Shown: one piece after another, positions 823 to 9,079 of the stretch
How positions within the stretch are numbered: the stretch's first letter is position 1
How the letters are laid out: each line of letters opens with the position of its first letter
Virus record (IMG/VR): IMGVR_UViG_2579778989_000004
Location: 1 to 15,041 of that record
Source of the DNA: a virus
Lineage: Duplodnaviria; Heunggongvirae; Uroviricota; Caudoviricetes
DNA: 15,041 bases
Reading direction: 5' to 3' (one strand)
The notes under the pieces: generated by a model
The model's database searches: none
What the model saw: only the letters and a program-made list of their open reading frames with translations
What the model was told of the DNA's origin: nothing
Made by a program: the position numbers and the translations under genes

Positions 823-1038
823 ATGTACCAGATGGAAAAAATCACAACAGGTGTGTCATACACCACGTCAGCGGTGGGAACGGGCTACTGGTTCCTGCAG
901 TTGCTGGACAGGGTTTCCCCGTCTCAGTGGGCGGCAATAGGCGTGCTGGGGAGTCTGCTGTTTGGGCTGCTGACATATCTGACGAACCTGTATTTCAAAA
1001 TCAGAGAGGACCGTCGTAAGGCTGCACGGGGAGAGTAA
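823..1038 (+). CDS. S: Class II holin (pinholin) of the phage 21 S21 / E. coli EssD-EssQ family, 71 aa.
   Basis: The translation [71 protein letters not shown] matches the S21/EssD pinholin family from memory, with two TM segments and a charged C-terminus. GGAG-like RBS at 811-815. The longer track ORF from 745 is rejected as an upstream extension. Confidence 0.9.
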
Positions 1039-1042
1039 TTCA

Positions 1043-1357
1043 ATGACTCAAAACTATGAACTGATTGTGAAAGGGATCCGCAATTTTGAGAATAAAGTTA
1101 CGGTAACTTTAGCGTTACGGGACAAAAAACGCTTTGACGGTGAAATTTTTGACCTGGACATCTCGCTGGACCGTGTTGAAGGTGCCGCGCTGGAGTTTTA
1201 TGAGGCAGCAGCCAGAAGGAGCATCAGACAGGTCTTCATGGATGTTGCTGCCGGGTTATGTGAAGGGGACGAGCTGTTGCCAGAAACGCGCCCCTGTTCA
1301 GAGGCGCGGTATACCATAAAAATTAACAGTTCTGATAACTCGATTACGGGTTGTTAG
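1043..1357 (+). CDS. ydfR: Small protein of unknown function (104 aa) between holin and endolysin. Resembles YdfR (DUF1327) of the E. coli Qin prophage lysis region.
   Basis: Complete ORF with ATG 4 nt after the holin stop. The N-terminus MTQNYELIVKGIRNFENKVTVT...FDGEIFDLD...VEGAALEFYEAAARRS matches my recollection of YdfR. The holin, ydfR, lysozyme order is that of Qin. Confidence 0.6.
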   Translation: MTQNYELIVKGIRNFENKVTVTLALRDKKRFDGEIFDLDISLDRVEGAALEFYEAAARRSIRQVFMDVAAGLCEGDELLPETRPCSEARYTIKINSSDNSITGC

Positions 1358-1412
1358 CTTTTTGCAGTTGGCTTTCCAGTATCTTTCATTGGTAGCATCC
1401 TGATAAATATCC

Positions 1413-1946
1413 ATGAGCGCAAAAATCAAATACGGCCTGTCAGCTGCTGTTCTGGCGCTGATTGCTGCAGGCGCGTCTGCTCCTCAAATACTTGACCAGT
1501 TTCTGGATGAAAAAGAGGGTAACCACACTACGGCATACCGCGATGGTTCCGGTATATGGACCATCTGTCGTGGTGCCACAATGGTGGATGGTAAGCCCGT
1601 CATACCGGGAATGAAGCTGTCGAAGGAAAAATGCGACCAGGTTAACGCTATTGAACGTGATAAGGCGCTGGCATGGGTGGAGCGCAATATTAAAGTACCA
1701 CTGACCGAACCACAGAAAGCGGGTATAGCGTCATTCTGTCCCTATAACATTGGCCCCGGTAAGTGTTTCCCGTCGACGTTTTATAAGCGGCTGAATGCCG
1801 GTGATCGTAAGGGCGCATGCGAGGCGATTCGCTGGTGGATAAAAGATGGTGGGCGCGATTGCCGCATACGTTCAAATAACTGCTATGGACAGGTTATTCG
1901 TCGTGACCAGGAAAGCGCATTAGCCTGTTGGGGGATAGATCAGTGA
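1413..1946 (+). CDS. R: SAR endolysin, a GH24 lysozyme (phage 21 R21 / RrrD-RrrQ type), 177 aa.
   Basis: N-terminal weakly hydrophobic Gly/Ala-rich segment ([15 protein letters not shown]) typical of a signal-anchor-release domain. The E...D...T catalytic pattern ([16 protein letters not shown]) and C-terminal CWG motif match T4-lysozyme-like SAR endolysins. Follows a pinholin. Confidence 0.9.
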
Positions 1947-2401
1947 GCAGAGTCGCAGCGATTATTTATACTCTGGTTATCTGCACCATCGTCTGCCTGT
2001 CATGGGCTGTTAATCATTACCGCGATAACGCCATTACCTACAAAGCCCAGCGCGACAAAAATGCCAGAGAACTGAAGCTGGCGAACGTGGTAATTACTGA
2101 CATGCAGATGCGTCAGCGTGATGTAGCAGATCTCGACGCCAGATACACAAAGGAGCTTGCTGATGCTAACGCGACTATCGAAAGTCTTCGTGCTGATGTT
2201 TCTGCTGGGCGTAAGCGCCTGCAAGTCGCCGCCACCTGTGCAAAGTCAACGACCGGAGCCAGCAGCATGGGCGATGGAGAAAGCCCAAGACTTACAGCAG
2301 ATGCTGAACTCAATTATTACCGTCTCCGAAGTGGAATCGACAAGATAACCGCTCAGGTCAACTACCTGCAGGAGTACATCAGGACGCAGTGCTTAAAATA
2401 A
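1943..2401 (+). CDS. Rz: Rz inner-membrane spanin (i-spanin). The start is GTG at 1943, overlapping the endolysin TGA stop.
   Basis: The translation [62 protein letters not shown]... is near-identical to lambda Rz as I recall it. The GTG start is chosen over the track's TTG at 1928 by alignment to the lambda Rz N-terminus. Confidence 0.85.
2157..2348 (+). CDS. Rz1: Rz1 outer-membrane lipoprotein spanin (o-spanin), embedded in the +1 frame of Rz.
   Basis: 63-aa ORF lying wholly within Rz in a different frame. Signal peptide with lipobox LLGVSAC followed by a proline-rich segment ([13 protein letters not shown]), as in lambda Rz1. Confidence 0.75.
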
Positions 2402-2817: not shown

Positions 2818-3438
2818 ATGAAAGATCAAGATGTTAGGTTCGCGGTGCATCATAAGCTTTTGAAAGAATCGCATTTAGATCCAGACTGCCTTGTGGTCGA
2901 TGAATTTTCCATATCCCTTGGCGCCAGTAGAGCAGACATTGCTGTAATAAATGGTGTTATACACGGGTACGAGCTCAAAAGTGAATATGACTCTTTGGAG
3001 CGTTTGCCTCTTCAAATCAAGCATTATTCTTCTGTAATGGACAAGGTTACTCTTGTCGTAGCTGAGAAACACCTTGAGGGAGCATTAAAGTTAATCCCAG
3101 GTTGGTGGGGCGTTAAAACGGTTTCTGTTGGGCCAAAAGGCGCCATTCTTATAAAGCACATGCGTGGAGAAAAGCTTAATCGAAACCATGACACATTGAT
3201 GCTCGCTCAATTGCTTTGGAAAGATGAATGTATCGACGTACTTGAACGATGGGGCTATTCCAAAGGAATCAAAAGCAAGCCCCGATTTGAGTTATGGAAT
3301 ATTATTGCGGAAAATATTCCAATAGCGAATCTCAGGCCTGAAGTCAGAACAGCCTTAAAGAAACGCGTAGGCTGGAAAGTTAAGGCTTGGCAGGCTGAGT
3401 CTGCGCCAACCAATAAAGCTGTCTCACGACTAACGTAA
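2818..3438 (+). CDS. Hypothetical protein (206 aa) with an N-terminal PD-(D/E)xK-like nuclease motif. AT-rich accessory gene.
   Basis: Complete ORF with SD AAGGAG at 5-nt spacing. Residues D28-E29, D40 (RADIAVING) and E52-L-K54 (HGYELKSE) fit the hhhD-x(n)-hhExK pattern on predicted beta strands. GC content is visibly lower than in the flanking phage genes. Confidence 0.7.
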   Translation: MKDQDVRFAVHHKLLKESHLDPDCLVVDEFSISLGASRADIAVINGVIHGYELKSEYDSLERLPLQIKHYSSVMDKVTLVVAEKHLEGALKLIPGWWGVKTVSVGPKGAILIKHMRGEKLNRNHDTLMLAQLLWKDECIDVLERWGYSKGIKSKPRFELWNIIAENIPIANLRPEVRTALKKRVGWKVKAWQAESAPTNKAVSRLT

Positions 3439-4447
3439 TATGGTGCGTATGTGCAACTTTACGCCATTCTTTAGAGCCGCCAGATTTGTTAGCGCCTAAT
3501 GATCTTTGGTAAATGTAATCATCCCCCCAACTAAATTTGGAGCCAAAGACTTGATACTCTGGCGAACTAACAAGGGTAGTACATAAGTTTTTAGTTTGGC
3601 CCCATCCATTTCCTTTAACTGCGGTACCTTTTACAAAGATCCATGAGGTATCGTTCGAATATCTCACTGAGACATACTGAGACATGAAGCGTGGGTCTAC
3701 GCTCGTAATGGTAGAGCTAGCGGTGGGATAATCACTAAAACTTGGCGTTCTTCCATTGCTAAAATTCTGTACTACGTACATCCAAAGATCGTATTCATGG
3801 CGCGGAATATGATGAACTTGATGTTGCGGTATCCCTGCCTGTGATGCCGGGTATGCGGTTGAAGATAAAATCAAGTTTCTCCACGGAGCTTGGCCTGATA
3901 ATGTGTTGACCATGCTTAATGCTTGTTGTTTTAAACTATCAGTTGCGTTTTGAATATCTCCAAAATCAATGATTACATCAATTAAACTAGGATGAATATT
4001 TAAGTGGTTAACCAGACTTGTGAATTGGTGCCATGTCTGGGGGGTGATAGACATAGCGAGCCCATTGATTAAGTTGCGTTGAACAGCATGTATATAGTTT
4101 GTTGAATATGCGGGAGAAACAACAGGGATAATTTCCTTACCATTTACTCTAGCATCTTGGATACACATATCTAGAGGATGATGGCGGCTCGAACCATGTT
4201 TATCTAAATATTTAACATCCAGCAAAACAGGACGATTGGCTTTCCAGGATGCCGCAAGGTTAATACCGAAGTCAGATAAGTAAGAACTCAAACTCTTCTT
4301 GTAGCATTCGTTTTCATAATCCCAGTCTATGTCTGGAATGGTAATGATCGGAGTAAAACCAGAGAGCGTAGTTTGATCTAAAAGCATCAGAGATTCATAT
4401 TCAGCAGGCTTCCATTTCAGCTGTGGATAATATTGATGTTGACTCAT
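3380..4447 (-). CDS. Hypothetical protein (355 aa), family not recognised. Convergent with the 206-aa gene and overlapping its 3' end by ~59 bp.
   Basis: Long minus-strand ORF in AT-rich DNA, where spurious long ORFs are unlikely. ATG at 4447-4445 with SD AAGGAG (complement of 4453-4458) at 5-nt spacing. No Walker A or other motif I can assign. Confidence 0.7.
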   Translation of the reverse strand: MSQHQYYPQLKWKPAEYESLMLLDQTTLSGFTPIITIPDIDWDYENECYKKSLSSYLSDFGINLAASWKANRPVLLDVKYLDKHGSSRHHPLDMCIQDARVNGKEIIPVVSPAYSTNYIHAVQRNLINGLAMSITPQTWHQFTSLVNHLNIHPSLIDVIIDFGDIQNATDSLKQQALSMVNTLSGQAPWRNLILSSTAYPASQAGIPQHQVHHIPRHEYDLWMYVVQNFSNGRTPSFSDYPTASSTITSVDPRFMSQYVSVRYSNDTSWIFVKGTAVKGNGWGQTKNLCTTLVSSPEYQVFGSKFSWGDDYIYQRSLGANKSGGSKEWRKVAHTHHITLVVRQLYWLAQTQPAKP

Positions 4448-7490: not shown

Positions 7491-9079
7491 AACGAACGCC
7501 TGTCCTGATTGATGTGAACGGCGTTCCGCTTCGGGAGAGTCTCAGCTACAACGGGGGCGGCGCAGGATTTGGCGGGCAAATGGCGGAGTGGTTGCCACCG
7601 GCGCAGAGTGCCGATGCGGCCCTGCTACCCGCGTTGCGTCTGGGGAATGCCCGTGCAGATGATCTGGTGCGCAATAACGGAATAGCGGCTAATGCGGTGG
7701 CCCTGCATAAGGATCACATTGTCGGGCATATGTTTCTGATCAGCTACCGTCCGAACTGGCGCTGGCTGGGGATGCGGGAGACCGCAGCAAAAAGTTTTGT
7801 CGATGAGGTGGAGGCGGCCTGGTCGGAATACGCAGAAGGGATGTTTGGTGAGATCGACGTGGAAGGGAAACGCACGTTCACGGAATTTATCCGTGAAGGT
7901 GTGGGCGTTCATGCGTTTAACGGCGAAATCTTTGTGCAGCCGGTCTGGGATACGGAAACCACGCAGTTGTTCCGTACGCGTTTTAAAGCCGTGAGTCCGA
8001 AACGGGTGGACACGCCTGGACACGGTATGGGGAACCGTTTTCTGCGGGCCGGTGTGGAGGTTGATCGATATGGCCGTGCCGTTGCGTACCATATCTGTGA
8101 GGATGATTTTCCTTTCTCTGGTAGTGGACGATGGGAACGGATCCCGCGTGAACTACCCACCGGGCGTCCGGCCATGCTGCATATTTTCGAGCCGGTGGAG
8201 GACGGGCAGACCCGTGGGGCTAATCAGTTTTACAGCGTCATGGAACGGCTGAAGATGCTCGATTCCCTGCAGGCAACACAGCTTCAGTCGGCCATAGTGA
8301 AGGCGATGTATGCAGCGACGATTGAAAGTGACCTTGATACCGAAAAGGCCTTTGAATATATCGCCGGTGCGCCGCAGGGGCAGAAGGATAATCCGCTTAT
8401 TAATATTCTGGATAAGTTCTCCACCTGGTATGACACGAATCACGTGACGCTGGGCGGTGTCAAAATTCCGCACCTTTTCCCCGGTGATGATCTGAAACTT
8501 CAGACCGCGCAGGATTCAGACAATGGATTTTCGGCGCTTGAACAGGCGCTGCTGCGGTATATCGCCGCCGGTCTTGGCGTTTCCTACGAACAGTTGTCCC
8601 GTGATTACTCGAAGGTCAGTTACTCAAGTGCCCGCGCATCCGCCAATGAGTCGTGGCGCTATTTTATGGGGCGGCGAAAATTTATTGCGTCCCGGCTGGC
8701 CACGCAGATGTTTTCCTGCTGGCTGGAAGAGGCACTTCTTCGGGGGATTATTCGTCCGCCACGGGCACGTTTTGATTTTTATCAGGCGCGATCAGCCTGG
8801 TCACGGGCTGAGTGGATTGGAGCCGGAAGAATGGCCATTGACGGGCTCAAGGAGGTTCAGGAATCAGTGATGCGCATTGAGGCCGGACTGAGCACGTATG
8901 AGAAAGAGCTGGCGCTGATGGGCGAGGATTATCAGGACATTTTCCGCCAGCAGGTCAGGGAATCTGCAGAGCGGGAAAAAGCCGGACTCTCACGTCCGGT
9001 GTGGATAGCGCAGGCGTATCAGCAGCAGATAGCGGAGAGTCGCAGGCCGGAAGAGGAGACAACACCACGTGAGACGTAA
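7487..9079 (+). CDS. B: Portal protein (lambda gpB homologue), 530 aa.
   Basis: Long conserved blocks recalled from lambda gpB (NARADDLVRNNG, FEPVEDGQTRGAN, QSAIVKAMYAATIES, LLRYIAAGLGVSYEQLSR, RMAIDGLKEVQE). ATGA start/stop overlap with W. Confidence 0.95.
   Translation: MKRTPVLIDVNGVPLRESLSYNGGGAGFGGQMAEWLPPAQSADAALLPALRLGNARADDLVRNNGIAANAVALHKDHIVGHMFLISYRPNWRWLGMRETAAKSFVDEVEAAWSEYAEGMFGEIDVEGKRTFTEFIREGVGVHAFNGEIFVQPVWDTETTQLFRTRFKAVSPKRVDTPGHGMGNRFLRAGVEVDRYGRAVAYHICEDDFPFSGSGRWERIPRELPTGRPAMLHIFEPVEDGQTRGANQFYSVMERLKMLDSLQATQLQSAIVKAMYAATIESDLDTEKAFEYIAGAPQGQKDNPLINILDKFSTWYDTNHVTLGGVKIPHLFPGDDLKLQTAQDSDNGFSALEQALLRYIAAGLGVSYEQLSRDYSKVSYSSARASANESWRYFMGRRKFIASRLATQMFSCWLEEALLRGIIRPPRARFDFYQARSAWSRAEWIGAGRMAIDGLKEVQESVMRIEAGLSTYEKELALMGEDYQDIFRQQVRESAEREKAGLSRPVWIAQAYQQQIAESRRPEEETTPRET

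Follow-up and report, generated by a model that had tools for sequence, protein, structure and literature searches.

Whether a gene lodged between the holin and the endolysin of a prophage lysis cassette takes part in lysis is the question raised by an open reading frame in a 15,041-nucleotide stretch of a tailed-phage genome (IMG/VR record IMGVR_UViG_2579778989_000004), here called the window. A sequence-only reading had described the product as a YdfR/DUF1327-like protein of 104 residues, acidic and soluble-looking, encoded as in the Qin prophage of E. coli K-12 with its start 4 nt past the holin stop, and had considered either a regulator of lysis timing or an unrelated moron. The descriptive part of that reading agrees with our results in all details that could be checked. 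The holin stop codon TAA (1036 to 1038) is followed by the spacer TTCA and the ydfR ATG at 1043. The 104-residue product matches the PF07041 (DUF1327/YdfR) profile over positions 1 to 90 of 93 with E = 2.7e-39 and 133.7 bits, above the gathering cut-off of 25 bits, and belongs to phrog_2735 in PHROGs (E = 3e-55, category unknown function). Searches of NCBIfam, PADLOC and PDB sequences with the protein gave no match, and YdfR bears no function label in Pfam, PHROGs, NCBIfam or PADLOC. The protein has a pI of 4.85 and a net charge of -4.5; a hydropathy scan revealed no signal and, because the maximum 19-residue Kyte-Doolittle value (KD19) is only 0.68, no transmembrane (TM) segment.

The reading frame is not a chance one, because the dN/dS ratio of its core is about 0.25 (0.25 to 0.26 for the window allele against the K-12 and BP-4795 alleles) and homologs occur in other genera; the ratio indicates that the core is under purifying selection. 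Its origin as an artefact of fusion to the holin was rejected, as PF04971-PF07041 'fusion' proteins are few and all of them singletons. [quoted passage not shown] The extra gene is a real, routinely annotated prophage gene, and this copy of it is unremarkable, offering nothing new beyond the many deposited sequences. With blastn, ydfR was found in 4352 of 5426 complete E. coli genomes (approximately 80%), at 8615 places and with up to 10 copies per genome, and it was therefore already known. The family is small and narrow (292 clusters in a set of 5.8 billion proteins and, at 50% identity, 75 representatives in one of 1.84 billion), nearly all of its members coming from Escherichia, Shigella or Salmonella. 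[quoted passage not shown]

Table 1. Features of the ydfR-bearing lysis cassette in the window and of related loci
Feature	Position	Strand	Evidence and remarks
S21-type class II holin	823..1038	+	PF04971 (Phage_holin_2_1, P21 holin S), E=2.3e-32; 71 aa
SD-like GGGGAGAG	1028..1035	+	Within holin 3' end; would serve ydfR here and lysozyme in ydfR-less cassettes
ydfR-family gene (DUF1327)	1043..1357	+	104 aa, ATG start, TAG stop
Conserved core, residues 1-75	1043..1267	+	Three antiparallel strands and long helix (model); alignments, dN/dS
Variable tail, residues 76-104	1268..1354	+	Predicted beta-hairpin after low-confidence linker; tail variants
Weak terminator-like hairpin, then CTTTTTG	1332..1364	+	Spans last ydfR codons and stop; -11.9 kcal/mol, z=-2.1
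Remnant of 3' end of 79-aa convergent reverse-strand ORF	1358..1397		Alignment with L028, 312-nt indel
Conserved junction TCCTGATAAATATCC-ATGA at lysozyme start	1398..1416	+	No Shine-Dalgarno sequence
T4-lysozyme-family endolysin, putatively SAR-type	1413..1946	+	177 aa; PF00959 (Phage_lysozyme) E=1.1e-24; phrog_7 endolysin
Rz i-spanin	1943..2401	+	PF03245 E=6.9e-41, RefSeq coordinates; longest ORF from 1928
Rz1 o-spanin lipoprotein, embedded in Rz	2157..2348	+ (+1 frame)	Lipobox LLGVSAC, Pro-rich mature part; by sequence reading
S21-holin 3' remnant and SD before ydfR	L108-L110, about 2950..3000		Salmonella prophages, downstream of unrelated PF16080 holin
Reverse-strand partner ORFs, Escherichia and Pantoea	L028 3312..3551; L088 2637..2951; Pantoea L102 5240..5545	-	
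Pantoea DUF1327 gene	Between Q and lambda-S-type holin		GH19 endolysin present
Cronobacter DUF1327 gene	After Rz		
Yersinia and several metagenomic contigs, DUF1327 gene	Lambda-like tail slots gpM/gpL, gpL/gpK, gpI/gpJ		

The cassette into which ydfR is packed is of the phage 21 type. The holin begins with MYQM, two Met codons as in the dual-start motif (the longest reading frame starts at 745), and contains one strongly hydrophobic stretch (KD19 1.70); a 'class II holin family protein' is annotated by RefSeq at the matching coordinates in E. coli 55989. The endolysin has an E-x8-D-x5-T motif and a weakly hydrophobic, Gly/Ala-rich N-terminal segment (KD19 1.78), both of which are consistent with a SAR endolysin. 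Upstream of ydfR no sigma-70-like site of its own was found, and the GC content of 0.46-0.53 across positions 1001 to 1400 does not set the gene apart from the flanking lysis genes (0.49-0.54). The weak hairpin at the end of the gene is to be read against the count of terminator-like sites in the region, which is no higher than expected from shuffled sequence.

The likeness to Qin extends to K-12 YdfR itself (b1555, UniProt P76160), which shares PF07041, the order essQ(holin)-ydfR-rrrQ(lysozyme)-rzpQ and the 4-nt gap behind the holin. In the core, 59 of 75 residues are identical to those of the window protein. The tails, by contrast, are unrelated (K-12: ...VESYLQHQYSFKIENPANKHERPHHKYL), and the K-12 stop codon overlaps the lysozyme start in the sequence ATGA, whereas 55 nt that include the remnant of a reverse reading frame separate the two genes in the window. 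The closest phage relative, mEp460, encodes a YdfR (YP_007112129) that is 98% identical over 104 residues in a cassette of identical geometry, including the 55-nt spacer. Stx1a and Stx2c phages, H-19B and BP-4795 (ORF47) also encode a YdfR family protein. The BP-4795 type has the same junctions and a core that is 57% identical, and differs in its length of 114 residues, its tail (…EKRPIILEAQDVLITYRGKLPG…) and the insertion of ant between R and Rz.

That YdfR is a modulator of lysis timing, acting from the cytoplasm either on the pinholin, for instance by way of the basic C-terminal tail, or on the SAR endolysin while it is tethered to the membrane, and so setting the moment or the sharpness of lysis, is suggested by its position. 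Across 89 Escherichia loci with ydfR, the end of the holin is consistently 8 nt ahead of the ydfR ATG, with the sole exception of L070, for which no holin match was found. Among phage records, 99 of 101 ydfR copies lie in a single blastn place that covers the holin 3' end together with the ydfR 5' end. The Shine-Dalgarno (SD) sequence of ydfR is embedded in the holin gene, ydfR always lies just upstream of a SAR lysozyme in Escherichia and Salmonella, and the acidic protein is encoded alongside a holin whose tail is basic. The survey of linkage to S21-type pinholins proposed with the sequence-only reading thus bears out the association from the side of ydfR. Seen from the holin it does not hold: 434 phage records contain an S21-type holin and only about 23% of them carry ydfR. 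Phages 434 and P27 and the Stx phage of EDL933 are among the approximately 77% of S21-holin phages without it, as is POCJ13, which encodes a holin 100% identical to that of the window. In POCJ13 the same SD and 4-nt spacer run straight into the lysozyme ATG, so that in cassettes of this type holin and lysozyme are adjacent and ydfR in the window sits between two genes that are neighbours in related phages. The linkage is one-way: ydfR follows an S21 holin in Escherichia, and most such holins do without ydfR. Furthermore, the holins beside near-identical ydfR alleles are only 75-100% identical across the 89 Escherichia loci, which argues against a modulator of lysis timing.

One of the loci collected lies on contig JAGZPX010000007.1 (L009), which was binned with a metagenome-assembled genome of Veillonella parvula. 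Its Escherichia-type holin-ydfR-lysozyme cassette has a layout identical to that of E. coli L008, and the contig almost certainly stems from an Escherichia prophage and was mis-binned.

Salmonella provides a natural experiment on the partnership with the holin. The Salmonella homolog (P0105, 68% identical) lies between a PF16080 holin of 100-102 residues, unrelated to the S21 type, and a SAR-type lysozyme. Directly upstream of its ATG a non-coding remnant, ...FKEDKRKAARGE-stop, was found that represents the 3'-terminal codons of an S21-type holin, and the SD and the 4-nt spacer are retained with it. Retention of ydfR beside a dead S21 remnant and another holin indicates that the link to the holin is one of ancestry and of the translation-initiation region, not a protein partnership.

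Homologs farther away lie in other contexts. Profile searches identified stand-alone proteins of 72-99 residues, 25-39% identical to the window YdfR, in Pantoea, Cronobacter, Yersinia and metagenomes. All 10 distinct non-Escherichia homologs occur outside the holin-endolysin slot (Table 1). Three of them adjoin lysis genes, which may be counted in favor of a role in lysis; those in tail modules are far from any. Based on these varied contexts, it was concluded that DUF1327 is a family of late-operon accessory genes that is not tied to lysis genes. Searches for related loci with a closer family alignment returned Escherichia only, and tblastn of the divergent homologs against isolated phages likewise returned only the Escherichia copies.

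Together with the S21-holin records and the PF16080 cassettes of Salmonella, the tail modules reveal that ydfR does not co-occur obligatorily with any cassette type. Nor does YdfR carry the membrane or envelope targeting expected of lysis-cassette machinery, that is, a TM segment, a SAR domain, a signal or a lipobox, and it has no similarity to any antiholin. T4 RIII is a cytoplasmic co-antiholin, and YdfR resembles it in being small, soluble, cytoplasmic and encoded with lysis genes, such that it could in principle bind the cytoplasmic part of the holin. By contrast, the two proteins are not homologous, identical holins occur with and without YdfR, and YdfR is maintained with unrelated holins and in tail modules. 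We regard a modulator of lysis timing as distinctly unlikely, and yet the near-constant place of ydfR behind the S21 holin in Escherichia phages, and its place before the SAR lysozyme in Escherichia and Salmonella, leave some probability to a lysis-related role in that lineage. Of the two alternatives raised at the outset, the evidence favors the moron: ydfR is an optional late-operon passenger outside the pinholin/SAR-endolysin/spanin machinery. This shifts the focus from lysis timing to the late takeover of the host, by way of RNase E and RNA (see below), and to the genes found convergent with ydfR.

The term moron requires qualification. The morons of lambdoid late operons described by Hendrix and colleagues, such as bor and lom of lambda and gp15 of HK97, are independent transcription units. 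Like these, ydfR is extra and dispensable, lies between genes that are adjacent in related phages, occupies several late-operon slots and is distributed in a mosaic fashion. Unlike these, it is oriented with the late genes, is not preceded by a promoter-like site, has no distinct base composition and has at its end no more than a weak hairpin resembling a terminator. Expression probably takes place late and not in the lysogen.

A regularity of another kind emerged from the remote homologs. Next to each of the 10 distinct non-Escherichia homologs (16 loci) a gene of 70-182 residues is called on the opposite strand, at a distance of 0-40 nt or with a 3' overlap. In Escherichia a convergent partner of 79 or 104 residues is present at 9 of 89 loci (the 79-residue reading frame is intact in seven), and the 79-residue partner occurs in the Salmonella loci L109 and L110. 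In the third Salmonella locus, L108, the 79-residue frame contains an internal stop codon. The spacer of the window aligns over positions 1358 to 1397 with the 3' end of the 79-residue frame and then skips 312 nt to the lysozyme junction, from which it follows that the window allele represents the deleted, or never-filled, state of the convergent arrangement. A reverse reading frame of 43 codons at 1298 to 1429 of the window was rejected as a gene; it is a chimeric remnant. The partner genes are richer in AT than the loci around them (GC 0.30-0.43 compared with 0.39-0.57). They make up four families or more, and the PHROGs to which they belong differ and have no assigned function. Their assignment to one family was rejected because phmmer found no mutual homology and the hhalign probability was 0.2; five short partners have in common a loose E-x-x-A-L-K...L-D-E helix pattern. 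No PADLOC-DB defence profile matched YdfR, the long form P0133 or four partner ORFs. Neither the partner regularity nor the holin remnant of Salmonella is contained in the literature searched on ydfR/DUF1327.

These observations can be read as a mobile convergent two-gene cassette in which the late DUF1327 protein neutralises or regulates cargo that is expressed from the reverse strand in the lysogen. The window ydfR, its cargo deleted, would then be an orphan that may still serve against cargo carried by related prophages. The constancy of the reverse-strand neighbor, its base composition and the remnant in the window speak for such a pairing. Against it stand the lack of detectable homology among the partner families, the absence of a PADLOC match on either side, and the fact that most Escherichia copies have no partner and yet are under purifying selection. 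The regularity is compatible with an insertion hot spot beside DUF1327 and with a functional pairing and does not discriminate between the two; the unrelatedness of the partner families fits a hot spot better than a dedicated pair. We consider the cassette unlikely as an explanation of the window gene. Its general form, in which DUF1327 would be the late-strand half of the cassette, a beta3-alpha protein of approximately 72 residues made only in the lytic cycle that counters or regulates lysogeny-expressed cargo, perhaps via RNA or RNase E at the overlapping 3' ends, is put forward as a conjecture of rather low probability. If true, the cassette would be a new two-gene prophage module that accounts for DUF1327 at many late-operon slots, and the orphan E. 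coli copies, including that of the window, would be retained antidotes or regulators.

The protein itself consists of a conserved core and a variable tail. In an alignment that includes the 25-39% identical members, G47, Y53, E54 and A57 are invariant and Y5 and L7 nearly so; all six are found in the window YdfR. An AlphaFold2 model calculated from a 31-sequence alignment has a mean pLDDT of 79.5, with 83-94 in the core, and predicts strands at residues 5-14, 18-27 and 34-43, a helix at 50-74, a linker of low confidence and a C-terminal hairpin at 92-103. A fold search with the predicted beta3-alpha core gave no significant match; the weak matches that recurred are generic beta-beta-beta-alpha units, among them dsRBDs and Rad52/Mgm101. 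Relatives of 161-287 residues are extended by a coiled coil and by a C-terminal module (phrog_36381, phrog_26186) to which no function is assigned, and no Pfam domain was found in these extensions. The 287-residue P0133 aligns by tblastn with window positions 1043 to 1345, and residues 1-101 of the window protein align with the first 101 residues of the long forms of 268-287 residues, so that the tail from 76 to 101 is homologous as well. The window allele would be a reduced form, comprising the core and a short tail. A metagenomic protein of 176 residues, P0177, appears to contain a second, weaker DUF1327-like repeat; the repeat at residues 109-173 scored against the DUF1327 profile, and the N-terminal one was recognized by eye only.

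The C-termini form a truncation series of 287, 268, 183, 176, 161, 116, 114, 104 and 103 residues, and the right-hand junction of ydfR exists in several indel variants. Both features would be expected of a functionless hitch-hiker, the decaying remnant of a longer gene that persists only because it sits between two closely spaced lysis genes, both essential, and provides the endolysin with its upstream context. Overexpression of K-12 YdfR, which altered a small number of transcripts and left growth unaffected (Gopel et al. 2026; PMC13232886), points in the same direction. However, all variants retain the full 75-residue core and its dN/dS ratio is that of a selected gene, a stand-alone protein of 72-76 residues is conserved in other Enterobacterales at 25-39% identity, and the predicted fold is confident, with its four invariant residues in place. 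Clean loss is evidently possible, as in the POCJ13-type junction, and yet at least one copy persists in 80% of E. coli genomes. Decay of this kind is very improbable.

What the core does can be approached through a single report. The study of Gopel et al. (RNA Biol 2026; PMC13232886) is the only functional one found for YdfR, and it modifies the earlier statement that the role is unknown: no function has been established, and yet binding to RNase E and co-purification with RNA have been described for the K-12 protein. In a two-hybrid screen with RNase G, YdfR(1-72) was recovered three times; Rne(1-597) was bound by YdfR(1-72) and by full-length YdfR, and the interaction with RNase G was weaker than that with the N-terminal catalytic half of RNase E (PMC13232886). 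Strep-YdfR co-elutes Rne(1-598)-FLAG, and its eluate contains DNase-resistant nucleic acid at levels similar to those of RapZ (PMC13232886). The contact with RNase E thus derives from one study of the K-12 allele under overexpression, in which the YdfR pull-down did not include nuclease treatment, such that RNA may bridge the two proteins (PMC13232886). The slight transcriptome effect and the unaltered growth upon overexpression likewise weigh against a role linked to RNase E.

The analysis establishes the identity of the gene, its optional presence, the one-way linkage, its mosaic history and the purifying selection on it. In our preferred reading YdfR is a non-essential, late-expressed cytoplasmic accessory protein and not a regulator of lysis. 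The gene would be expressed from the phage late (pR'-type) transcript and translated via the SD in the holin 3' end. The window allele, reduced to the beta3-alpha core and a short tail without the coiled coil and the C-terminal module of its longer relatives, would also have lost its convergent reverse-strand partner. The core would most probably bind a cytoplasmic host target late in infection, for which the N-terminal half of RNase E (more weakly RNase G) and RNA are the candidates. Since the RNase E catalytic half and RNA are the only partners indicated by experiment, we propose that YdfR modulates RNA decay in the late phase as an RNA-binding or RNase E-associated protein, with an effect on RNA decay in vivo that we infer; for the window protein the association is extrapolated from the literature on the K-12 allele, whose core is 79% identical. 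This reading of an optional passenger whose core acts on a cytoplasmic target, RNase E or RNA being the best candidate, is advanced tentatively, at somewhat less than even chances.

Several phage proteins target RNase E, among them gp0.7 of T7, Srd of T4 and Dip of phiKZ. If the reported interaction is real, YdfR would resemble them in being a small, phage-encoded associate of RNase E (PMC13232886). Homology of YdfR to gp0.7, Srd or Dip was not apparent, as no significant match was obtained with Pfam, PDB or the fold search. Counting against the proposed reading, a Keio-based envelope-biogenesis screen by Paradis-Bleau in 2014 is cited by Gopel et al. (PMC13232886) as having flagged ydfR.

As a side effect, ydfR probably alters the translation context of the endolysin. 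In all cassettes with ydfR the conserved motif (T)CCTGATAAATATCC-ATGA, which lacks an SD, leads into the endolysin start; in K-12 the same junction is read as the final codons of ydfR, with ATGA as the stop/start overlap. Because ydfR occupies what is otherwise the ribosome-binding site of the endolysin, the endolysin start is left without an SD, and synthesis of the enzyme could drop or be delayed. Through the SD it takes over, ydfR may therefore have a modulatory effect on lysis. The arrangement as such would support lysis, since the isolated phage mEp460 has exactly the geometry of the window. Caution is advised when lysis cassettes are compared or engineered, because the translation start of the endolysin differs between cassettes with and without ydfR.

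Further passengers and signals were observed around the cassette. In Stx-type cassettes the anti-repressor gene ant is inserted between lysozyme and Rz (BP-4795 locus L002, 4200 to 4915; POCJ13 locus L003, 2577 to 3149), which is a second case of a passenger in these lysis cassettes. Approximately 30 nt before the holin start at 823, and within the longest holin reading frame, a terminator-like hairpin of 12 pairs followed by a run of seven T was found (755 to 793); it is probably a terminator that is read through by late, Q-modified transcription. Farther upstream, positions 145 to 672 encode the C-terminal 175 residues of a large DUF6645 protein (618 residues in E. coli 55989), in the slot in which Stx phages have an esterase of the SASA/NanS-p type. 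Between Rz and the small terminase subunit lies a convergent gene pair (2818 to 3438 on the plus strand, 3380 to 4447 on the minus strand) with a 3' overlap of 59 nt and a GC content of 0.36-0.46. It encodes a 206-residue sce7726-family protein (PADLOC 'cll', E = 3.8e-31) and a 355-residue Beta_protein (PF14350, E = 8e-56; PADLOC PD-Lambda-2_C, E = 4e-32) and looks like a candidate anti-phage defence moron.
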